A DNA stretch of 64,000 nt, taken from an uncultured Myxococcales bacterium. Its GTDB lineage: Bacteria > Myxococcota_A > Bradymonadia > UBA4248. The translations under genes and the position numbers were made by a program. The DNA lies in assembly GCA_964454015.1 (NCBI GenBank), contig CAYVQF010000021.1:13890-77889 (forward strand), in the 5' to 3' direction. The notes under the pieces are model-generated. The model saw only the letters and a list, made by a program, of their open reading frames with translations, was not told where the DNA came from and did no database searches. Below, one piece after another: positions 5,274-31,902 of the stretch. Positions within the stretch are counted from its first letter, which is position 1. Every line of letters begins with the position of its first letter.

Positions 5274-5979
5274 GGTTCTCAACGGCCAGTGGCGCCCCAC
5301 GCTTCTTGGCCCGATGGCGCTGCAATGAGCCATCCCCGCGTCGGCCTTGCAGGAGGAGCACCATGAGGTAGGCCGGCAGGCCAAGCAACGCCACGGCAAA
5401 GTAGCTGTGGAGATAGAGGGCCGCCACGGCGAGGGCCAAGAGTGCCAGGGCCGCGCCCCACATGCCGAGGCGGAACGCCTCATCGTTGCGGCGGGTCCAG
5501 AGATAAAAGGCCTCCAATCCCGCCACCAGCGCCACGGCCACCGCTGCGACGGGCCACATGGCCTGCTCCAAGGTCTCGGCCGCCCCCTGCCGCAGCAGGA
5601 TCAGGCTCGCCACCCAGGCGACCACGGCGACGCCCATGAAAATCACCATCGCGTGGCGCAGGGGGCGGAGCATCTCCCCCTGGCGCGGCGCGGCCGTCAC
5701 GAGGGTACCCAGGCGGTCTTGCTGCAGCAGCCGCACGGCCGCAGCGAGTGCCACCACGCCAAAGGGCAGGGCCAGCACGCCGCCGAGGATGCCGAGGCGC
5801 GCCCCTTGACGCGGACGCCCGCCCTGCGCGAACAGCGCCCCTGCTCCAGCCAGCAGCGCCCCCGCGGCGCCCGTCACCCCCAGAATCCACAGCCAGGGCA
5901 ACGCGACCACCGGCACGACCCACAAGGTCACGGCACCGACGAAAGCGACCACGATTCCAAGCCACAACAGCGCAGTCAT
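5263..5979 (-). CDS. Hypothetical integral membrane protein (about 6 TM helices)
   Basis: Hydrophobic helices throughout (MTALLWLGIVVAFVGAVTLWVV...). ATG at 5979. Overlaps the rsmG start by 11 nt, which suggests co-transcription. Confidence 0.45.
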   Translation of the reverse strand: MTALLWLGIVVAFVGAVTLWVVPVVALPWLWILGVTGAAGALLAGAGALFAQGGRPRQGARLGILGGVLALPFGVVALAAAVRLLQQDRLGTLVTAAPRQGEMLRPLRHAMVIFMGVAVVAWVASLILLRQGAAETLEQAMWPVAAVAVALVAGLEAFYLWTRRNDEAFRLGMWGAALALLALAVAALYLHSYFAVALLGLPAYLMVLLLQGRRGDGSLQRHRAKKRGAPLAVENHGR

Positions 5980-6224
5980 TGCTCTTCCAGGGGGGAGTAG
6001 TCGAGAAAAGACGGGGCGATCCCACGGCAGGGCGCCACTTGGCCGAAAATAGCACGCCCCACTCGGGGTGGCCACTGCTGCCAGCGCAGCAAACGGCGAG
6101 GCGGCCACCCCACGGCCAGCGCAACCTTGCCCCCCGAGGCGAAGGCCGCTAGCGTAGCCCGCGGTCGAAGGTCCGTTCACCCCTACTCGCCGCTCCGGTG
6201 AGCAGAGCCAACGAAGACGCAGCG

Positions 6225-8060
6225 ATGGCATACCTGGTATTGGCCCGCAAGTGGCGGCCGCAGAGCTTCACAGATGTCGTGGGACAGGGACACGTCACCC
6301 AGACCTTGGCCAACGCCATCCGTCAGGGGCGCGTGGCCCACGCCTTCCTCTTCACGGGCTCCCGAGGGGTGGGCAAAACCTCGACGGCCCGCATCCTGGC
6401 CAAGGCCCTCAATTGCCAAGAGGGCCCGACGCCGACCCCCTGCAACCAGTGCACGGCCTGCGTCGACATCACCGACGGCCGCGCCGTGGACATCATCGAA
6501 ATCGACGGCGCCTCGAACCGCGGCATCAACGAAATCCGCGAGGTGCGGGAGGCCGTTCGCTACGCCCCGAGCCGCGAGCGCTACAAAGTCTACATCATCG
6601 ACGAGGTCCACATGCTGACCACGGAGGCCTTCAACGCCCTGTTGAAGACCCTCGAGGAGCCCCCCAGCCACGCGGTCTTCGTCTTCGCCACCACCGAACC
6701 CAACAAAATCCCCGTCACCATCTTGAGCCGCTGTCAGCGCTACGACTTCAAGCGCGTCACCGTGCGGGATCTCTGTGAACGCCTGCGCCACATCGCCGAC
6801 GCCGAGGGGATCGACTTCACCGACGAGGCCTTGACCCTTTTGGCGCGCCACGCCCGCGGGGGCGTGCGCGACGCGCTGAGCGCGATGGACCAGGTCATCG
6901 CCTTCGCCGAACCCCCCATCAGCGCCGAGTCCGCCGCTGAGACCTTGGGCATCGCCAGCCGGGAGACCCTTCACTCCCTCGGCGAGGCGCTGGTCAACCG
7001 CGACGTGGATCGGGCCTTGCGGGTCTTGGAGAAGGTCGACAGCTATGGCCAAGACTTGGGCCATTTCTCCGTCGATCTCCTGGAGCACCTGCGTGACATG
7101 ACCGTGGTGTGCGCCGTCGCCGACCCCCAGGGGCTCACCGAGCTGGGCGAGTCCGAGCTAGAGCGGGTCAAGGCCGCCGTCAAGAACGTCAGCATCGAGC
7201 GCCTCCAGCGCATGTTTCAGATCTGGTCCGAGGCGGTGGACCTGGTCGTTCGCTCGCTCTATCCCAAGCTGTTGATGGAGATGACCGTGGTCAAGATGGC
7301 CGCCGTCGCGCCCATGCCGCCCCTGCTGCCCTTGCTCAGCCGCCTGGAGGCGCTGGAGAAATCGCTCCACGGCGACCTGCCGCGTGAGCAGGACTTGCTG
7401 GCCAAGATGCGGAGCCACCTGGCGGCGTCCCTCCGGGACTATGCGCCGCTGGGGTCCAGCGGTGACGCTCTGCCGGCGCCCTCTGAGCCACCCCCGGGGG
7501 AAAAAAAAAAGCCTGAAGCGCTAGCCTCTCGCGTCAGCGCGCCGCCGTCACCCCCGCAGCCGCCCCCTGCCACCACGGCGGCCACGCCGCACGCCCCAAC
7601 GAAAGTGGAAGCCCAAGAGACGCGGGCAGGGGCGATGGCGACGGCGGAGGTGAGCCCAGCGGAGTCTGGCGATCCTTGGCGTTCGGCCCTGCGGCGCCTC
7701 TCGCCCAAGGTAGCTGGGGTGATGGAGCAGGCCGTGGTGGTGCGTCTCGAGCCGACGGCGTTGGAGCTGGCCTTGAGCGATGGCTTGCGCGGGCTGTTGG
7801 TGGAAGCGGATTTGGCGGCCCTGCTCGACAGCCTCGCCCTGGAGTTGGGCGCACGGCCGCGCCTGCGCTTCGTCGAAGCGGCCCCAGCGGCCACCTTGTC
7901 GCTGGCCGAAGAGCGACAGCAAGCGCGTGAGCAGCATCAGGAGGCCATGCGCGAACGTATCCGCACGCATCCCTTGTTGGGCGAAGCCATGACGCGTTTT
8001 GGCGTCGACGCGAGCAGCGTCCGCATCGATTTACATCTCTATGAGGAGGATGAAGGATGA
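6225..8060 (+). CDS. dnaX: DNA polymerase III subunit tau/gamma
   Basis: MAYLVLARKWRPQSF..., Walker A GSRGVGKTS, and zinc module CNQCTAC. The C-terminal half is Pro/Ala-rich and tau-specific. It contains an in-frame A_AAA_AAG slippery heptamer at 7505-7511. Confidence 0.92.
   Translation: MAYLVLARKWRPQSFTDVVGQGHVTQTLANAIRQGRVAHAFLFTGSRGVGKTSTARILAKALNCQEGPTPTPCNQCTACVDITDGRAVDIIEIDGASNRGINEIREVREAVRYAPSRERYKVYIIDEVHMLTTEAFNALLKTLEEPPSHAVFVFATTEPNKIPVTILSRCQRYDFKRVTVRDLCERLRHIADAEGIDFTDEALTLLARHARGGVRDALSAMDQVIAFAEPPISAESAAETLGIASRETLHSLGEALVNRDVDRALRVLEKVDSYGQDLGHFSVDLLEHLRDMTVVCAVADPQGLTELGESELERVKAAVKNVSIERLQRMFQIWSEAVDLVVRSLYPKLLMEMTVVKMAAVAPMPPLLPLLSRLEALEKSLHGDLPREQDLLAKMRSHLAASLRDYAPLGSSGDALPAPSEPPPGEKKKPEALASRVSAPPSPPQPPPATTAATPHAPTKVEAQETRAGAMATAEVSPAESGDPWRSALRRLSPKVAGVMEQAVVVRLEPTALELALSDGLRGLLVEADLAALLDSLALELGARPRLRFVEAAPAATLSLAEERQQAREQHQEAMRERIRTHPLLGEAMTRFGVDASSVRIDLHLYEEDEG
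7501..7516 (+). other. dnaX: Putative programmed -1 frameshift or transcriptional-slippage site in dnaX (A10 run followed by a -1-frame TGA)
   Basis: Sequence gggggAAAAAAAAAAGCCTGAagcg. The zero frame reads E-K-K-K-P-E. After a -1 slip on A_AAA_AAG the frame reads GCC TGA (Ala, stop). This would give a gamma-like product of about 439 aa. Confidence 0.6.
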
Positions 8061-8998: not shown

Positions 8999-10252
8999 TC
9001 AGGCCAGGCTCACCCAACGCACGAGCGGGGCCAGGGTGCCGATGCCGTCGTGGCGCCAGGACAGGGGAGGCCGCTGCATGTGCCCCAGGGGGCAGACGCG
9101 GTTGAGGCCGGCCAGCGTCAGGGTCGCGAGTCGTTGCGGGGTGAGGGTCGCGCCGGCCATGCCGAGGCATTGGAGATGGGGCGCGGCGGCGCTGAGGTGG
9201 GGGATGAGGTCGTCGAGGTCGGCCACGGGGTAGACCGGGAGCACCCGCGCGCCGCAGGAGGGGGTCAGGGGCTGGGCGCTGGGATAGGCCAAGATGGTGG
9301 CCCCACCAGGGGCGGTGAAGGCGTGCGCGTCGAGGAGGGCGTTCTGGATGTAGGAGCGCCGATGGGCGCGGGCGGCGGCGTCGAGAGGCCCGAGGGGGAA
9401 GCGGGCTTCGAGGGGCGGCAGGGCGTGGTGCGCCAGTTGCCGCGCCACCTCGGCGGCGTCTTTGGCGTCGCCCTGGAGGTAGAGGGCCTGCGGAGAGAGG
9501 CAGCCGTACTGGTCCCAGAGGCAGAGGTCGAGGGCGAGGTCGCTCAGGATCGCGGGCGTCGGCTCGGGGTCGGCGCCGAGGTAGGCCGCCGAGATGCGGT
9601 GTCCGTAGGGGACGAAGATCTGGTGGGGTCGCGCGAGGCGCTGCCACTGGGCGACGGCGCGGGCGCTGCCGTGGACGACGATGGCGTCGCCGGCAGCGGC
9701 CATGGCGGCGGCGCTGTCGAGATCCGATGAGGGGAAGTGGGCCAAGATGACCGCCGGCGCCAGGGCGGGGGCGCACCGCGCCAGCACCTCGAGGAAGGCG
9801 CGCATGAGCGGCTGCAAGCGCGCCGCCGCTCTGACCAGGACGGGGACGCCCGCCATGACGGGGAGCATGGTGGCCTGGATGCCGGCCGGCGGTACGGTAG
9901 CGGCGAGGACCATGGCGAGGCGCTGGGGCAAGAGGGGGCGCCAGTGGGGGTGTTCTTGGGGCAGCTCCGTGGCGAGGAAGCGGCGCATTGCGTCAGGTTG
10001 CCAGCATCGTTCCAGCTCGCCGAAGCCGAAGGCGAGGGTGGCGGCGCTACAGCCGCAGGCCTCGGCGCCAGCGGCCCAGTCGCTGGCGCCGAGGCCTGCG
10101 GCGAGCTGGGTCATGGCGGCCAGGCGCGCCTCGATGTCCATGGCTGCGAGGGCGAGGCGGGCTTGGTACATGGCCTGAACGGCCTGGGCCAAGCCCGCCT
10201 CGCCTAGGGGGGCATGCCAACCAGCGCCGCTGAAAAACCCCGTCACATCCAT
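8999..10252 (-). CDS. Acyl-CoA reductase, LuxC-like (fatty aldehyde-forming)
   Basis: LuxC-family length and motifs (AIVVHGSARAV, YGHRISAAYL). Start chosen at MDVTGFF (ATG at 10252), overlapping the stop of the upstream gene by 10 nt. Confidence 0.55.
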   Translation of the reverse strand: MDVTGFFSGAGWHAPLGEAGLAQAVQAMYQARLALAAMDIEARLAAMTQLAAGLGASDWAAGAEACGCSAATLAFGFGELERCWQPDAMRRFLATELPQEHPHWRPLLPQRLAMVLAATVPPAGIQATMLPVMAGVPVLVRAAARLQPLMRAFLEVLARCAPALAPAVILAHFPSSDLDSAAAMAAAGDAIVVHGSARAVAQWQRLARPHQIFVPYGHRISAAYLGADPEPTPAILSDLALDLCLWDQYGCLSPQALYLQGDAKDAAEVARQLAHHALPPLEARFPLGPLDAAARAHRRSYIQNALLDAHAFTAPGGATILAYPSAQPLTPSCGARVLPVYPVADLDDLIPHLSAAAPHLQCLGMAGATLTPQRLATLTLAGLNRVCPLGHMQRPPLSWRHDGIGTLAPLVRWVSLA

Positions 10253-11403
10253 AGCGACCGCTCTGCCCCGCTCAACATGGCGTCCAAAGCGATGGAGCAG
10301 CCCTTGGCCACGGCGCCAGCCCGGCCGCACAACTGCAAACAGGCGTCCACGGGCCACGGGAGATGGGCCGCCGCCTCGGGCGGCACTGGGTGACAGCGCC
10401 CCAAGTCCCCCGTGAGCACGTACGCCGCCGAATCCAAGTTGGCCAGATCCCGCAGGGCGATCTGCCCCTCTTCGCCCCAGGGCAACTCGGTCAGGCTGTC
10501 CGGGTCGAGCACGGCGAAGCGGCACCATGGCGGCCCCACGAAGCGATCCCGCAGCGCCAACGCCAGATCCCCGTGCCCAGCCAAGGCCAGCGCCATGGAC
10601 GCCTCATAGAGCTGGCTCGAGAGCTCAGACATCCCATACTCGGCCACGATCAGCGCCGCCTCCAGCCCCAGGGTCGCCACCAAAGCGGCGTGCAAGTCTG
10701 GGCGGGGAACCTGGCGGCTCAAGCCCTTGTAGCCACCGGTCTCCAATAGCCGCGACCCCGCTGGCAGACGCCAGCGCCGCCCCCCGAGGCCATCCAGAAA
10801 ATGGACGAAAGCGAAAGAGGGCCCCAACAAAAACACCGGGCGCCCTGAAGCCTCGGCCGCATCCAACGCCGCCGTGAGCCGGGGCGCGTCCAAGTTGCCC
10901 GCCGCGTCGACGAGGAAGTGCCCCCCACCGTGGTGGCGCATCAAGTGGGCGAACATATGCACCAGCGAGCTGTGCGGTGCGTCGGCGTCACTTGGGGTCA
11001 GCACCCACCATGACAGCTCGGCGCCGTCGCCCAAGACCATGGGCGCAAAGGTCGCCAGGATCGCCGTGTCCATCAACGCCAGGGTCTTGAAAACGTGACG
11101 CGAGCGCTGCTCCGCCGTCGTGCCGCTGGAAAAGAAGGTCGCCACCGCCTCGGAGGCGTCATGGGGAAAGAGGTCAGCCCGTTTGAAGGCCTCCACGGGC
11201 AGCGGCGGCAAGCCCCAGGGATCACCGCCGGGCTCGACGCCGCCGTGGCGACAATAGCGCCCATAGAGAGGGTGCGCCTGCGCCTGGTAGGTCATGATCT
11301 GCGCCGTCAACGCACGCCAAGCCTCGGGCGCGAGGCCGCGGGTCATCCCGGCCAACAAGGCCTGCTCCAGGCGCGCCCGCTCCGCTGCCCACCTGGCCGC
11401 CAT
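10243..11403 (-). CDS. Acyl-protein synthetase, LuxE-like (adenylate-forming)
   Basis: FFSSGTTAEQRSRH matches the LuxE SSGTTG nucleotide-binding motif. Length about 387 aa. ATG at 11403 shares one nt with the rex stop. Confidence 0.55.
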   Translation of the reverse strand: MAARWAAERARLEQALLAGMTRGLAPEAWRALTAQIMTYQAQAHPLYGRYCRHGGVEPGGDPWGLPPLPVEAFKRADLFPHDASEAVATFFSSGTTAEQRSRHVFKTLALMDTAILATFAPMVLGDGAELSWWVLTPSDADAPHSSLVHMFAHLMRHHGGGHFLVDAAGNLDAPRLTAALDAAEASGRPVFLLGPSFAFVHFLDGLGGRRWRLPAGSRLLETGGYKGLSRQVPRPDLHAALVATLGLEAALIVAEYGMSELSSQLYEASMALALAGHGDLALALRDRFVGPPWCRFAVLDPDSLTELPWGEEGQIALRDLANLDSAAYVLTGDLGRCHPVPPEAAAHLPWPVDACLQLCGRAGAVAKGCSIALDAMLSGAERSLWM

Positions 11404-12074
11404 CACCGCGCCTCCGGCACATCTCGCACGGCATAGGCCAGCTCCGCCAGATCCACGCTGAGCTGCTCGTCGCGCACCAGCACCCCGGGCGGCGCGACCA
11501 AGGTGGCAGGGGTGAAGTTCCAGATCGCGCGCACCCCAGCCTCTACCAAGGCCTGCATCGCTTCCTTCGGCGTCGCCGACCGACTCGGCGTGATGATCCC
11601 CAGACGCACGCCCAAGCGCCGGCACTCACGGGGGAGCGCCTTGAGGGGATACAAACTCGCCCCGGCCACCACCTCTCCCGTGGCCTCGATGTCATCGTCG
11701 AAAATGGCCACCACCGCCAGCCCACACACGGAAAAAAGCGGATAGTCCGCCAGGGCCCGAGCCATGCGCCCGCTCCCAACGATCACCGCCCCCTTGAGGG
11801 TGTCCAGGCCCAAGCGCTCGCGAATGGCCGCCAGGACCGTCGCGCCCGTGAAGCCCACGCTCGGTTTGCCCCGCAAACCGAGGGCCGCGAGATCCTTGCG
11901 CACCTGGGTCGGATCGACGCCACAGTGCTTGGCCAAGTGTTCGCTCGCGACCACATCGGACGCAACGGCCCAATCGGTCAAGACCCGGTGGTAACGCATC
12001 AGACGCTCAAAGTGGAGGCGCTTCACGGACCCGCTCCTTCGCCAAGCCTCAGCCGAGGCATTCCTTTGCTGCAC
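11403..12074 (-). CDS. rex: Redox-sensing transcriptional repressor Rex (NADH/NAD+)
   Basis: N-terminal winged helix VKRLHFERLMRYHRVL resembles the Rex KRLPLYYRFL motif. Rossmann motif IVGSGRMARALA. About 220 aa. Confidence 0.7.
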   Translation of the reverse strand: MQQRNASAEAWRRSGSVKRLHFERLMRYHRVLTDWAVASDVVASEHLAKHCGVDPTQVRKDLAALGLRGKPSVGFTGATVLAAIRERLGLDTLKGAVIVGSGRMARALADYPLFSVCGLAVVAIFDDDIEATGEVVAGASLYPLKALPRECRRLGVRLGIITPSRSATPKEAMQALVEAGVRAIWNFTPATLVAPPGVLVRDEQLSVDLAELAYAVRDVPEAR

Positions 12075-12197
12075 TTAGCACGTTGCGCCGCCAGCGTCAC
12101 TTCGTTAAAAGATCACTCGCCCCCTCATCCTGGGCGGCGAGGCGCCACGGCTGACGCCGCGCCGGCCCCCACCACACCACCCCACGCCGAGACCACC

Positions 12198-12878
12198 ATG
12201 TGCATCTCTGACGAAGTCTGGAAGAAGTGCAGCGCCTGCCGCCGCCCCATCACCTATGGTGCCGTGTATTGGGCCTGCTCGGTGTCCACCTGCAACAGCA
12301 AACGCATGGGGCTCTTTTTCTGCTCCATCGGCTGCTGGGACGCGCACCTCCCCGAGGCACGCCACCGCTCGGCGGCGGCCGTAGAGCAGCGGGCCCCCAG
12401 CGCCCCCGAGCCTGAGGCGCCCGCGCCGCAGAGCTCTGCCAAAGCAGCCGCGGCGCGGCCAGCCCTCCACGGCGATGCGCCGCGGGAGATCCTCATCGTC
12501 GCCGCCCACCTGGAATCCTACGTGGCCGATCGCGCTGGCGAGCCCCTCAAAGTGCCACCAGCGGTGCTACATCTCTTGAGTGACTACCTCCGCGAGCGTT
12601 GCGACGCGGCCATCCAGCGCGCCCAGGCCGCAGGGCGCAAGACCGTCCTCGAGCGCGATGTGGCCCCTCCCCCTGCCGCCCCGGCAGGCCCCATGCTCTG
12701 CATCGTCTCGCGGGTCAAGCACTACATCCGCGCCACGGCAGACTGCAACACCGCCGCCGCCGCCTTGGACTTGCTCTCGGCGCACGTCCGCGCCCTCGCC
12801 CACGAAGGGGTACGCAAAGTGCTGCGCGAAGAACGCGGCACCCTGCTGCCCAGCGACCTGCCGCCCAGGGCCTACTGA
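12198..12878 (+). CDS. Hypothetical protein with an N-terminal zinc ribbon and a C-terminal histone-fold-like region
   Basis: CSACRR...CSVSTC...CSIGCWDAH is a Cys-rich zinc-ribbon-like N-terminus. The C-terminus AAGRKTVLERDV resembles the archaeal/H4 histone alpha3 signature (H/A)AGRKT(I/V)xxxD(I/V). Confidence 0.4.
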   Translation: MCISDEVWKKCSACRRPITYGAVYWACSVSTCNSKRMGLFFCSIGCWDAHLPEARHRSAAAVEQRAPSAPEPEAPAPQSSAKAAAARPALHGDAPREILIVAAHLESYVADRAGEPLKVPPAVLHLLSDYLRERCDAAIQRAQAAGRKTVLERDVAPPPAAPAGPMLCIVSRVKHYIRATADCNTAAAALDLLSAHVRALAHEGVRKVLREERGTLLPSDLPPRAY

Positions 12879-13405
12879 GTCTCGATCTCGAGCACGATGC
12901 CAAAGCGGAGATGGAGCACCGCCTCGGGCTCCCACGCAGGCACCAGCGCGTGGCGCATGATCTCCCAGTCGAGGCTCACCCGCTGATCGACCACGAAATC
13001 CCTGAGGTCTTCGTGGAGGACGATGTCGAGGGAACGCTCCAGCTCCCCCGGGCGGAAGGACTTGCCCTGCACGGCGAGCACGCGCCGCGAGGTGGCAGGC
13101 TCGATGACAAAGATGTCGATGGTGGAGAACACCGAGAGATCCAGCCCCTCAGGGTTGTCGGCCTCGGTGTCGATGGCGACCCAGGCCTGGTGGAGGACGG
13201 CGTTGCGCGCTGCGGCGACATCACGCTCGAAGCGAAAGCGCTTGGCCGTGGTGAAGAGCCCCACCTCGACCCCAGGCACCTCGAGGGAGGTGGTGATGGC
13301 ATCGTGGAAGACGTTGACATCACAGCCACTGGCCAGCAACAACCCGAGCGCCAGCGCCGCAACGCCGCGGCCACACTGCAGGACACTTCCCCAGGAATCT
13401 CTCAT
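12872..13405 (-). CDS. Hypothetical lipoprotein
   Basis: Signal peptide with lipobox LLASGC after MRDSWGSVLQCGRGVAALALG. No recognisable catalytic motifs. Confidence 0.4.
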   Translation of the reverse strand: MRDSWGSVLQCGRGVAALALGLLLASGCDVNVFHDAITTSLEVPGVEVGLFTTAKRFRFERDVAAARNAVLHQAWVAIDTEADNPEGLDLSVFSTIDIFVIEPATSRRVLAVQGKSFRPGELERSLDIVLHEDLRDFVVDQRVSLDWEIMRHALVPAWEPEAVLHLRFGIVLEIETQ

Positions 13406-13556: not shown

Positions 13557-14429
13557 TCAACGCCGACAGCGGCTCGCGCTGGGGGGGCCCAGGTAGAGGT
13601 TGTCGTAATAGACGTCGGCAAAGACCTCGGCCGAGCCGGGCCCGCGCAGATCGAATCGCGCCTCATAGAGGATGCGCAGCTTGTGCCCCGGACCGGGCAC
13701 ATAACCCCAATGGGTCTGGAAATCCTGGGCGGGGTTGGTCGCAAAGGGCACCCACTGCCCCCGCACGGGCTCCCGCTGTCGCGGCGACTCGAGGAAGATG
13801 TAGTGGGCGTTGCCAATCTGGTGCGGCTGCGTCTCAGCGCCGCTGACGACGTAGCGAAGCTGGGCGTTGCCCTGGCCAACGTCGCGGCTCAAATCGATGA
13901 TGACGAGCTGAAGGTACTGCCGCTCGGCACCCCGTGACCATTTGTCCACATAGTAGTAACCCTCGATGCAGCCCGGCAACGCCTCTGTCAGCTCGACCTC
14001 CTGCACGGCGCCCCAGACGATGGTCGAGCGGGCGTCGTTCTGGGAACGCAGCGGCAAGAGCACCGAGGCGTCGCCTTCATAGGCCAGGTTGCGGCTGATC
14101 CTGAAGGGCGCCCACCCTTTGGACCACTCCAACCAGTGCCAGCCCACCTCTCCTTGCTCAAAGCCTGGATTTGCCAGGAGATTGCCCGCCTCGACGATGG
14201 GCGGCAGCGCCTCGGAGGCCACGGCGCGCTCAGCCTCAGGTGTGGCGGCAGGCGCGACCTCCTGGGTGGCTGTGGCGTGGGGCCGCAAGGCCAACCACAG
14301 CGAGAGGGCCACGACGGCCGCGGCGAGCACGAGCACGACGGTCGTCGTGGACGCCCTGCGGGCGGGGCGCCCTGCCGGTGGCGGCGATGACGTGGGAGCA
14401 CGCGGCGTTTTCTTGCTTTTCTTGGCCAT
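13557..14429 (-). CDS. Hypothetical signal-anchored or secreted protein
   Basis: N-terminal Lys/Pro-rich segment, then one hydrophobic helix (VVLVLAAAVVALSLWLAL). The rest is an aromatic-rich beta-type domain of unknown family. Confidence 0.4.
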   Translation of the reverse strand: MAKKSKKTPRAPTSSPPPAGRPARRASTTTVVLVLAAAVVALSLWLALRPHATATQEVAPAATPEAERAVASEALPPIVEAGNLLANPGFEQGEVGWHWLEWSKGWAPFRISRNLAYEGDASVLLPLRSQNDARSTIVWGAVQEVELTEALPGCIEGYYYVDKWSRGAERQYLQLVIIDLSRDVGQGNAQLRYVVSGAETQPHQIGNAHYIFLESPRQREPVRGQWVPFATNPAQDFQTHWGYVPGPGHKLRILYEARFDLRGPGSAEVFADVYYDNLYLGPPSASRCRR

Positions 14430-14674
14430 GAGCAACCTCTGAAACAGTCAACGAGCTGCCCCACTCCATAACAGGCAGCGCCCGTCATCACAAGGCCATG
14501 TGCGGCGCTTCGCGCCCAAATCGGCGCGCCCCAGGTGGCGTTGCAAACAGTAAAAGGTGCGAGATTCGTCAATATTTTACGCAGTGATAAGATCCCAGTC
14601 GCGACGCGTGGCCGTCGCCGCTTGGGCCCTGAGCTCAGCGCCTTCTTCCCATCCGTACCGGTGACGCAAGCGCC

Positions 14675-15583
14675 ATGGAAATCGTCTTCGCCCAGGCCAG
14701 TGACAAAGGCATCAGCCGCCAGGAGAATCAAGACGCCATGGGGACCTTCTCCGGTCCATGGGGTCGCCTCTTCGTCGTCTGCGACGGCCTGGGCGGTCAT
14801 GCCGGCGGTGCCATCGCCAGTCGGGTGGCGGTGCAGCGCATCGGGGCGGCCTTCGCCGAGGCCATCGCCAGCGCCTTGCCGGCAGCGGCACTGGAGGCGG
14901 CTCTCGTGAGCGGCAACCAGGCCGTGCGCGCGGCAGCCCAAAAGAGCGGCCTGGTCGAGATGGCGACGACCTGCGTCGCCCTCTTCATCCCCACGGATCT
15001 CCAGCACGCCTACGCGGCCCACGCTGGGGACAGTCGCATTTACCGCATTCGCGGGCAGGAGATCGCCCAGATCACTCGGGACCACACGGAATACCAACGC
15101 CGCCTCGACGCGGGCGAGAGCGTCCCCGAGCGGGGGCCAGGGACGGAGCTCCTCCACTTGGTCGAGCGTTCCTTGGGCCCAAGCCCAGAGCTCGACGTGA
15201 GCGTCAGCGAGCCCCTGCCCCTGCGCGAGGGCGACGTGTATTTGCTGTGCAGCGACGGCCTCACCACCATGCTCGACGACGAGGACATCCGCCGCTATGT
15301 GGGCGAGCTGCCGCCATCGTCGGCCGTCGTCGAGTTGGTGGGCCTGGCCAATGCCCGCGGCGGCTACGACAACATCACCGTGCAGGTGGTCGAGATCGCC
15401 AGCGCCCTGCATCGCGACGCTCCCTCCGAGAGTGGCTTGGTCCGCATCTCGGATCTCCTGGCCGAGCATCAGGATTTTCGGGCCCGACAACAGCGCATCC
15501 GCAAGCGCCAGCGGCTCTTCGTCACCGCCGTGGTCGTCGTCTGTGTGTGGATTCTCCTTGCATGTGTGTGGGCCGCGGTTTAG
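14675..15583 (+). CDS. PP2C-family Ser/Thr protein phosphatase with a C-terminal membrane anchor
   Basis: Motifs QENQDA, VVCDGLGGHAGG and LLCSDGL match PP2C/Stp1. C-terminal hydrophobic helix VTAVVVVCVWILLACVWAAV. Confidence 0.8.
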   Translation: MEIVFAQASDKGISRQENQDAMGTFSGPWGRLFVVCDGLGGHAGGAIASRVAVQRIGAAFAEAIASALPAAALEAALVSGNQAVRAAAQKSGLVEMATTCVALFIPTDLQHAYAAHAGDSRIYRIRGQEIAQITRDHTEYQRRLDAGESVPERGPGTELLHLVERSLGPSPELDVSVSEPLPLREGDVYLLCSDGLTTMLDDEDIRRYVGELPPSSAVVELVGLANARGGYDNITVQVVEIASALHRDAPSESGLVRISDLLAEHQDFRARQQRIRKRQRLFVTAVVVVCVWILLACVWAAV

Positions 15584-15621: not shown

Positions 15622-16839
15622 ATGGATCCGCACCCCAGCCACAATCCAGGCCCCAGCGCCGACGACGCGCGCCTCCAGGCCGACTTTGTCCGCCGCCCCG
15701 ACCTAGCGCCGGTGCCCCCTCCCCAAGCGGTCTCGACTTACGCCCAACGCCCGGCCTGCTGGGCCCACGTCTCCCAGGAGAATTGGTCCAAGTGGCGTTG
15801 GCAGATGCGGCACCGGGTACGCAGCGCCGCCGCCCTGGCGCCCATCCTCGACCTCAGCCCTGAGGACGAGGCCGCCATCACCTGGGCCGCGAGCCGCTTC
15901 CCCCTCTTGACCACACCCCACTACCTCGCCCTGGCCCAGGCCACGGCGCCGTGCGCCATCCGCGCGCAAATCCTCCCCTCTTGGTCCGAAGTCACCCATG
16001 GCCACGACGGGCTCTGGGATCCACTGGGTGAAGGGGCGCACGGCCTGCAACCAGGCTTGACCCAACGCTACCCCGACCGCGTACTCTTGGTGCTGCGCCA
16101 CAGTTGTGCCAGCCACTGCCGTCACTGCACCCGGCGCCGCAAAGTTGGCGACCCGAGCCAGGCCCCGACCCGCGCCGAGATCGAGGCGGCGCTCAACACC
16201 ATCGCCGCCACCCCCACCATCCGCGATGTCCTGGTCTCTGGCGGCGACCCCTTGTCCCTGTCGACGCGGCGCTTGGGCGCAGTGCTGTCGCGCCTGCGCG
16301 CCATCCCCCACCTCGACGTGATCCGCCTCTGTACGCGGATGCCCGTGACCCTACCCCAGCGCATCGACGCCGCGCTGTGTGAGTGTCTGCGGGCCCTGGG
16401 CCCCATCTACGTCAACACCCACTTCAACCACCCACAAGAGGCCAGCGTTGAGAGCGGCGCGGCTCTGCAGCGTCTCCGCCTGTCGGGCTGCATCCTGAAC
16501 AATCAGATGGTGCTCCTGCGCGGTGTGAACGACGACGCCGCCATCATCGAGTCCATGAACCGCTGGCTGTTGCGACACGGCTGTAGGCCCTACTACCTCT
16601 TTCAGGTGGACCGCGGCCAACATACAGGCCATTTTCGCTGCCCCCTCGCGGTCGGTCAGGGGATCCTGCGCCGTCTGCGCGGGCGCATGGGTGGCCTGGG
16701 AGTGCCACGCTTTGTGGTGGATTTGCCGGGAGGCTGGGGCAAGGCCTGTGCTGAGTTAGCCGAGGCGGCGCCCGGCGCTCGGGGCGTCCCATTGTTGTGG
16801 AGCTGGCGCGGCCTGTGGGTCCCTTACGAAGATCTTTGA
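15622..16839 (+). CDS. KamA-family radical SAM aminomutase (lysine 2,3-aminomutase-like)
   Basis: CxxxCxxC cluster CASHCRHCTRR. KamA-type N-terminal WSKWRWQMRHRV and TPHYLALA motifs. PLP/SAM region VLVSGGDPL. The 14758 ORF is an upstream frame read-through. Confidence 0.7.
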   Translation: MDPHPSHNPGPSADDARLQADFVRRPDLAPVPPPQAVSTYAQRPACWAHVSQENWSKWRWQMRHRVRSAAALAPILDLSPEDEAAITWAASRFPLLTTPHYLALAQATAPCAIRAQILPSWSEVTHGHDGLWDPLGEGAHGLQPGLTQRYPDRVLLVLRHSCASHCRHCTRRRKVGDPSQAPTRAEIEAALNTIAATPTIRDVLVSGGDPLSLSTRRLGAVLSRLRAIPHLDVIRLCTRMPVTLPQRIDAALCECLRALGPIYVNTHFNHPQEASVESGAALQRLRLSGCILNNQMVLLRGVNDDAAIIESMNRWLLRHGCRPYYLFQVDRGQHTGHFRCPLAVGQGILRRLRGRMGGLGVPRFVVDLPGGWGKACAELAEAAPGARGVPLLWSWRGLWVPYEDL

Positions 16840-17112: not shown

Positions 17113-17185
17113 GCTGGTGTAGCTCAATTGGCAGAGCATCTGATTTGTAATCAGGAGGTTGGGGGTTCAAGTCCCTTCACCAGCA
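17113..17185 (+). tRNA. tRNA-Thr (anticodon TGT)
   Basis: Cloverleaf read manually. Acceptor GCTGGTG/CACCAGC, D-arm GCTC..GAGC, anticodon loop TTTGTAA, T-loop GGTTCAAGTCC. Confidence 0.8.
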
Positions 17186-17207
17186 TAGATCGTGGTCGTT
17201 TTTGCCT

Positions 17208-17289
17208 TGGAGGGGTGCCCGAGCGGTTAAAGGGGGCGGACTGTAAATCCGTTGGCAACGCCTACGAAGGTTCGAATCCTTCCCCCTCC
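17208..17289 (+). tRNA. tRNA-Tyr (anticodon GTA), long variable arm
   Basis: Acceptor GGAGGGG/CCCCTCC, anticodon loop CTGTAAA, long variable arm, T-loop GGTTCGAATCC. Confidence 0.8.
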
Positions 17290-17350
17290 ATTTTAAGATG
17301 ATGACGCGACGCGTGCATCGCCACGCGTCGCGGGATCATCTTTTGTTTAT

Positions 17351-17423
17351 GCGGGAGTAGCTCAGTTGGTAGAGCATCAGCCTTCCAAGCTGAGGGTCGC
17401 GGGTTCGAACCCCGTCTCCCGCT
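17351..17423 (+). tRNA. tRNA-Gly (anticodon TCC)
   Basis: Acceptor GCGGGAG/CTCCCGC, anticodon loop CTTCCAA, T-loop GGTTCGAACCC. Confidence 0.8.
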
Positions 17424-17478
17424 CTTCCACGACATCCGACGGGCGCTTGCAGAGCGCCATCGCCGTTTCGAGTGGGGT

Positions 17479-17551
<73 letters not shown>

Positions 17552-18965: not shown

Positions 18966-19038
18966 AGGGGTGTAGCTCAGTTGGTAGAGCAACGGCCTCC
19001 AAAGCCGTGGGCCGGGGGTTCGAGTCCCTCCACCCCTG
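18966..19038 (+). tRNA. tRNA-Trp (anticodon CCA)
   Basis: Acceptor AGGGGTG/CACCCCT, anticodon loop CCTCCAAAG, T-loop GGTTCGAGTCC. Conserved position between tuf and secE. Confidence 0.8.

Positions 19039-23557: not shown

Positions 23558-27676
<4,119 letters not shown>

Positions 27677-27795: not shown

Positions 27796-31902
<4,107 letters not shown>

Follow-up and report, generated by a model that had tools for sequence, protein, structure and literature searches.

A 64,000-nucleotide stretch of DNA from an uncultured Myxococcales bacterium (assembly GCA_964454015.1, contig CAYVQF010000021.1, positions 13,890 to 77,889; here called the window) contains a gene for a 226-residue protein in which a zinc-binding N-terminal domain is followed by two histone folds in tandem (HF1 and HF2, for histone folds 1 and 2). 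A reading of this gene made earlier from the DNA letters without database searches (the sequence-only reading) held that such a zinc-finger/histone architecture would be unusual; the fusion has in fact already been published as the 'ZZ histone', a category defined computationally (Schwab et al. 2024, Nat Commun 15:7950, PMC11390915). The fusion is therefore known, and it is the tandem, one-sided form that is undescribed. Residues matching the DNA contacts of the bacterial histone HBb are kept at one of the two predicted contact sites of the double fold and degraded at the other, and this asymmetry is shared with related two-fold chains, which we term doublets.

DNA-contact residues in the two histone folds

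In a histone dimer, loop 1 (L1) of each fold is paired with loop 2 (L2) of its partner, so that two L1L2 DNA-contact sites are formed. Crystals of HBb with DNA show L1L2 phosphate contacts by K12, T23, S24 and A25 of one subunit and K52, T53 and R57 of the other, and central phosphate contacts by T8, S9 and K10 at the start of helix alpha1 (a1; a2 and a3 likewise) (PMC11317129). Using this contact list, we aligned to HBb all halves of all doublets, of which 19 are distinct. In L2 and a3 of HF1, the R-(K/R)-T motif, R57 and D58 (HBb numbering) were retained in every doublet, as was T23 in L1 of HF2. T23 in L1 of HF1 was lost in nine of the 19, and the R-K/R-T motif in L2 of HF2 also in nine; in the window protein both are gone.

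HF1 of the window protein has an intact L2/a3 (G146 R147 K148 T149, R153 and D154), and HF2 retains the a1 start and L1 (S171 R172, K174, N184 T185). The a1 and L1 of HF1 are replaced, with A102 A103 H104 standing for TSK, E106 for K12 and K118 V119 P120 P121 for NTSA, and this L1 carries a two-residue insertion. L2/a3 of HF2 is degraded, reading R213 G214 T215 (RGT for RKT) with S219 in place of R57. Ten HBb contact positions fall in HF1-a1/L1 and HF2-L2/a3, and at seven of them the side chain is not preserved (A102, A103, E106, V119, P120, G214 and S219). The RD clamp (R51-D58 of HBb) is retained in both halves, as R213/D220 in HF2. Given this L1-to-L2 pairing between folds, the losses in HF1-L1 and HF2-L2 strike the same composite site. 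Mapped in this way, the residues show one predicted site, made up of HF2-L1 (N184 T185, K174) and HF1-L2/a3 (R147 K148 T149, R153), that retains the phosphate-contact residues of HBb, and a second predicted site, HF1-L1 with HF2-L2, that is degraded, as is the half of the central a1-a1 contact contributed by HF1.

The asymmetric doublets comprise the clade of the window protein (with P0133, P0125, P0231, P0188 and P0128) and a sister group (P0127, P0129 and P0131), and the representatives are less than 50 % identical to one another. No two members of this clade have the same decayed HF2-L2 (ERGT, EREQ, GRGT, GKDR, GRAF or absent), whereas the other site is maintained, so that constraint on HF2-L2 looks relaxed; HF1-L1 drifts towards a recurrent L-(K/R)-V motif. 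Neighbour-joining trees computed on the separate doublet halves place the HF1s and the HF2s of most doublets in separate groups, indicating an old duplication. In one further doublet of 274 residues (P0126), both folds retain all DNA-contact residues and are mutual nearest relatives, so the fold has been duplicated in tandem on more than one occasion among ZZ histones.

Fold assignment, zinc domain and relatives

The 226-residue open reading frame (ORF) is genuine. The identical product was obtained by independent gene callers on 10 metagenome contigs (ENA, Logan, JGI), the gene and its upstream DNA are 100 % identical between the window and the other contigs compared, and the codon composition (GC 0.70; GC at third codon positions 0.84) is consistent with coding in this frame. 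A longer in-frame ORF of 317 residues, beginning at GTG 11925, was rejected: it overlaps the neighbouring rex gene, and homologues begin 5-10 residues ahead of the first Cys.

The sequence-only reading had seen one histone-fold-like segment, at the C-terminus. The resemblance was borne out, but the segment, with its motif AGRKTVLERDV, lies mid-protein in a helical stretch at amino acids (aa) 95-155 of 226, and a second, more divergent copy at aa 166-221, terminating in ERGTLLPSDL, had been overlooked; the motif RxTxxxxD occurs twice, from R147 and from R213. A profile hidden Markov model (HMM) of the fold, built from single-fold homologues, matches both HF1 and HF2 (domain E 3.8e-21 and 1.3e-15), and a six-frame scan of the window with it returned the two halves (E 5e-20 and 2e-14) and nothing besides. 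The fold family profile aligned to HBb with an hhalign probability of 99.4 % (E 2e-21) and to HMfB with 89.8 %, and HBb is 47 % identical to the family consensus. These profile and hhalign scores put the histone-fold resemblance far above chance. Direct scores of the window protein are weak: Pfam CBFD_NFYB_HMF (PF00808) gave E 0.058, below threshold, and NCBIfam archaea_histone E 0.005, and a phmmer search of the PDB linked HF2 (aa 166-221) to the HBb chains 8cmp and 8fvx at E 0.002 and HF1 to the archaeal HTkC at E 0.25. PF00808 was reached by six of 50 homologues (best E 1.7e-6).

The folds are of the alpha3-truncated HBb ("bacterial dimer") type, and not of the DUF1931 type that the sequence-only reading had mentioned. 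No Pfam match to DUF1931 (PF09123) was found for the protein at E<=10 or among the 50 homologues at E<=0.01, and the only DUF1931-labelled PDB chain to match (9qt0, E 1.2) belongs to HLp, an FtF histone with a single fold. The two halves of DUF1931 proteins are both devoid of DNA-binding residues (2025 tetrameric bacterial histone paper; 2026 double-histone-fold review), and we reject membership on this ground together with the missing profile match.

An AlphaFold2 model of the 226-residue protein, built on 50 homologues, has a mean predicted local distance difference test score (pLDDT) of 87.5 and a predicted template modelling score (pTM) of 0.61. It consists of a zinc finger-like domain, a low-confidence Pro/Ala linker and two helix-loop-long helix-loop-one-turn helix units (HF1: a1 102-113, a2 121-144, a3 152-154; HF2: a1 170-181, a2 187-210, a3 218-220). 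All structural matches of the double-fold model are histone folds, and the structure prediction and profile search proposed earlier as a check on the histone fold agree in supporting it. The homodimeric packing named in the companion check is not supported: there are two folds in one chain, and in the model they pack on each other, with Foldseek in accord. HF1 and HF2 are thus shown, in a model, to form an intramolecular histone pseudodimer that would need no second subunit to complete the fold. Since pTM is just 0.61 despite the high pLDDT, the model suggests that the ZZ domain is not confidently docked on the rest of the protein. The linker of about 27 residues (aa 68-94) is probably disordered, judging from the model, and differs in length and sequence across the 50-homologue alignment; the connectors between the folds of other doublets run to about 2-20 residues.

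The Cys pattern quoted for the N-terminus (CSACRR, CSVSTC, CSIGC) is present, and a zinc-binding N-terminal fusion was correctly recognized, although the name zinc ribbon does not fit. A zinc ribbon holds one zinc between two CxxC knuckles and has a three-stranded sheet. Eight ligands (C11, C14, C27, C32, C42, C46, H50 and H56, in the order C,C / C,C / C,C / H,H) are invariant here in 50 aligned homologues, and the span from C-x2-C to H-x5-H is present in 118 of the 120 best homologues. We propose a C4 site of C11, C14, C42 and C46 and a C2H2 site of C27, C32, H50 and H56. The modelled domain (aa 7-65) is compact, with three short strands, a helix at 44-54 and a strand at 61-65, and reaches a pLDDT of 89.9 when modelled in isolation. 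Structural comparison of the zinc-domain model ranked two-zinc ZZ fingers best, with weak scores, and classical ribbon and treble-clef proteins further down the list. The ribbon label was rejected given this ranking and the eight conserved ligands, which include two His and a helix-borne C-x3-C...H pair.

No sequence method tied the zinc domain to ZZ, whether Pfam on the protein, Pfam on the 50 homologues or a profile against the PDB: a Pfam scan of the whole protein at E<=10 gave no ZZ, MYND or HIT match, and the zinc-domain family profile found nothing significant among all PDB sequences (best E 0.14, an unrelated ZP2 chain; a MYM/TRASH finger at E 1.5). The ZZ label therefore comes wholly from the fold comparison, and we make the weak, fold-level statement that the domain is modelled as a ZZ-like two-zinc finger. 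Eukaryotic ZZ domains (HERC2, p300/CBP, ZZZ3, p62, BIG, KCMF1) have a similar small two-zinc fold, as far as the model goes, but no sequence-level similarity, and the third ligand pair of the window domain is C-x3-C. The full spacing is C-x2-C-x12-C-x4-C-x9-C-x3-C-x3-H-x5-H, with seven of the eight ligands at the positions published for the example ZZ histone D0LYE7 of Haliangium ochraceum, offset by +9 (PMC11390915). The Fig. 4 legend of that paper gives the C4 site of D0LYE7 as C20, C23, C51 and C53, where the C-x3-C spacing of the family predicts C51 and C55; this may be a real difference in D0LYE7 or a slip in the legend.

Homologues number 284 at E<=1e-3 by a word-indexed search and, by an exhaustive search, 461 representative clusters. 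Most are 150-200 aa long, with a single histone fold joined to the zinc domain by a linker that varies; the single-fold forms share 43-55 % identity over the zinc domain plus one fold. Relatives of 150-200 aa match down to E 1e-40 and are likened to the published ZZ histones by the description of their architecture. Doublets are a minority form of the family: among 274 sequences examined, 220 matched the fold profile and 22 of these had two folds (19 distinct). A search of a species-genome collection with the single protein returned one locus, at 43 % identity, in a metagenome-assembled genome labelled 'uncultured delta proteobacterium'.

The published ZZ histone has one fold per chain and was modelled as a homodimer with two ZZ domains (PMC11390915). 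The window protein resembles it in the N-terminal C4 plus C2H2 finger at the same spacing, the disordered linker, the alpha3-truncated fold near HBb and the solitary gene in a deltaproteobacteria-like lineage, and differs in having two folds and one ZZ domain per chain and unequal L1L2 sites. As its two folds pack intramolecularly in the model, we file it as a variant of the ZZ histones and not as a typical member. With HBb (Bd0055 of Bdellovibrio bacteriovorus; PDB 8CMP, 8FVX, 9EZZ) it shares the short a2, the one-turn a3, the RD clamp, the KT motif in L2 and the NTS motif in L1. HBb is a fold of about 60 aa and nothing more, an abundant and essential symmetric homodimer that bends DNA through both L1L2 sites and the a1-a1 site (PMC11390915, PMC11317129; 2025 tetrameric bacterial histone paper), whereas the window protein adds a 67-aa zinc domain and a tandem fold and has only one intact site.

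Among double histones, Schwab et al. distinguish DUF1931, Halo, Poseidoniia and Beta forms within 17 categories overall (PMC11390915). The DUF1931 double folds (Aquifex Aq_328, PDB 1R4V; Thermus TTHA1479, PDB 1WWI) are without a zinc domain and have no detectable sequence relationship to the window protein, which unlike them keeps one site fully conserved; their architectural likeness to the ZZ-histone doublet is convergent. HMk of M. kandleri (PDB 1F1E) and the H4-H3 and H2B-H2A doublets of Marseilleviridae (7N8N) differ in having a full-length a3 and in forming tetramers or nucleosome-like particles; for alpha3-truncated histones nothing above a dimer is predicted (PMC11390915). A doublet ZZ histone is mentioned neither in the main text or supplement of PMC11390915 nor in the 2025 tetrameric bacterial histone paper, and the 2026 double-histone-fold review has none, DUF1931 proteins being its sole bacterial entries; a full-text literature search on ZZ histones returned only those works.

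Proposed mode of action and alternatives

We favour, with some confidence, the view that this ZZ histone with a tandem alpha3-type fold is a monomeric DNA binder with a single L1L2 site and a tethered ZZ module, serving as a low-copy adaptor or regulator. The protein would act as a monomer and contact the DNA backbone through its one conserved L1L2 site; with a single such site it would not bend DNA over three successive contacts, unlike what is proposed for the HBb dimer. Through the flexibly tethered ZZ module it would also bind a second partner, be it protein, peptide or nucleic acid, so that the whole may be a DNA-bound adaptor or regulator present in few copies and not a bulk packager of the nucleoid. 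The poor expression of ZZ histones in Bdellovibrio (PMC11390915) fits such a specialised, non-bulk role.

Several observations weigh against this proposal. The asymmetric doublets form one clade with its sister group, which points to one or two events kept over a deep divergence and not to many independent ones. HF1 is without net positive charge, and the whole protein (isoelectric point 8.8) does not exceed HBb in basicity. The packing of the pseudodimer is an AlphaFold2 prediction, and we infer DNA binding by ZZ histones by analogy with HBb.

Alternatively, the protein may be a generic nucleoid histone like HBb that bends or coats DNA without specificity, engaging the central a1-a1 site as well as both L1L2 sites, in which case its substitutions would have no functional effect. 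We regard this as unlikely because seven of ten contact positions on one side have lost their side chain, because in the eight other clade representatives, too, this site has decayed and its counterpart is invariant, and because expression of the related single-fold ZZ histone is poor in Bdellovibrio (PMC11390915). We judge it just as unlikely that DNA binding has been lost altogether and that the pseudodimer is a protein-protein scaffold, like the DUF1931 doublets or TAF/SPT3, with ZZ as a second protein-binding module. Such a role would suit the electrically neutral HF1 and the non-chromatin doublets (DUF1931, SOS, SPT3) among the structural neighbours, and Schwab et al. warn against assuming that every prokaryotic 'histone' organises DNA (PMC11390915). 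However, the retention of one full L1L2 site in all 19 doublets at less than 50 % overall identity is unexpected for a pure scaffold, and there is no sequence relationship to DUF1931.

A more novel reading of the asymmetric doublet, to which we assign a lower likelihood than to either of these, is a bacterial reader-adaptor: one L1L2 site would anchor the monomer to DNA, ZZ would read a partner protein at its free N-terminus and the decayed face would have been repurposed for protein contact. Eukaryotic ZZ domains recognise the N-terminus of histone H3 or N-degrons. In bacterial ZZ domains the H3-tail binding pocket is not conserved (PMC11390915). If this reading were true, the eukaryotic chromatin logic of histone and histone reader would have a prokaryotic precursor in this one polypeptide.

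Genomic setting and significance

Table 1. Features of the ZZ-histone gene, its product and the surrounding genes, by position in the window
Feature	Position	Strand	Remarks
LuxC-type acyl-CoA reductase	about 9002..10261	-	PF05893, E 3e-37; after the 386-aa gene
386-aa gene, no Pfam match	10243..11403	-	contains FFSSGTTAEQRSRH stretch; downstream of rex
rex	11403..12026	-	Pfam Put_DNA-bind_N + CoA_binding; divergent from ZZ-histone gene across 171 bp
Divergent intergenic region common to ZZ-histone gene and rex	12027..12197	.	171 bp; promoter presumed there
ZZ-histone doublet gene, complete	12198..12878	+	226 aa; ATG 12198, stop 12876-12878 (ORF and sequence)
Two-zinc finger domain, weakly ZZ-like by fold, aa 7-67	12216..12398	+	terminates in conserved HR..A.E.RAP strand
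Pro/Ala-rich linker, aa 68-94	12399..12479	+	pLDDT minimum 48-71, aa 82-90 <50; variable among homologues
HF1, aa 95-156	12480..12665	+	HMM domain match; model secondary structure; HBb contact mapping
Pro/Ala connector between HF1 and HF2, aa 157-165 (9 residues)	12666..12692	+	pLDDT dip to ~74
HF2, aa 166-222	12693..12863	+	HMM domain match; phmmer to HBb; contact mapping
177-aa gene, no Pfam match	12872-13405	-	convergent to ZZ-histone gene; 7-nt overlap with its 3' end
290-aa gene, no Pfam match	13557-14435	-	convergent to ZZ-histone gene
PP2C_2-family phosphatase	14675-15583	+	two genes away from ZZ-histone gene
KamA/EpmB-like radical-SAM gene	15622..16839	+	CxxxCxxC motif
Four tRNA genes, then tuf, tRNA (18966-19038), secE, nusG, rplK, rplA	17113-17551 (four tRNA genes)	+	
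Two large ORFs, putative rpoB and rpoC	about 23558..27676 and 27796..31902	+	

The gene lies divergent from rex, as the sequence-only reading had stated, but this neighbourhood is peculiar to the window genome: no rex stands beside the homologue in seven other family contexts, including that of another doublet, and no synteny is shared. The ZZ-histone genes appear solitary. A search of the window for the Rex operator TTGTGAAnnnnTTCACAA, with up to 3 mismatches, gave no match anywhere, and the intergenic region yielded neither a sigma-70-like promoter nor a palindromic element. A locus-specific transcription factor coupled to the divergent rex/LuxC-like operon, such as a redox-linked co-regulator that uses the same intergenic control region, would suit the divergent arrangement and the fact that Cys-rich zinc domains can be redox sensitive, but the missing operator, promoter and conserved adjacency make it the least probable of the explanations considered, and we reject a functional link to rex.

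The start-stop spacing of rex and the 386-aa gene looks operon-like; it is unusual for a fatty-acyl reductase module to be linked to Rex. In the 290-aa product a hydrophobic stretch comes after a basic N-terminus, so this protein is probably membrane-anchored or secreted. At one other locus (L007), a phosphatase gene (5608-6411) lies on the same strand, 119 bp downstream of the single-fold ZZ histone P0029; a PP2C phosphatase is thus close by in two of eight contexts, which may be chance. The ZZ-histone gene sits just upstream of a conserved cluster of translation and transcription genes, and no rRNA was found in the window.

Bacterial histones have only recently been recognised, and while no new principle is established here, the asymmetry gives a testable handle on the uncharacterised ZZ-histone family, with the conservation pattern singling out K148, T149, R153, N184 and T185. 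With the ZZ-histone doublets, bacteria and archaea have a third type of double histone fold, independent of the others, that keeps DNA-contact residues, and it lies outside both the 17-category classification and the 2026 review. Because the fused halves of a doublet are free to evolve independently, it amounts to a natural experiment, and the finding that one site stays invariant while the other decays provides comparative evidence that a histone-type DNA contact is under selection in ZZ histones. A single L1L2 site may be sufficient for the role of the ZZ-histone doublet, which argues against DNA bending or packaging in the asymmetric lineage.
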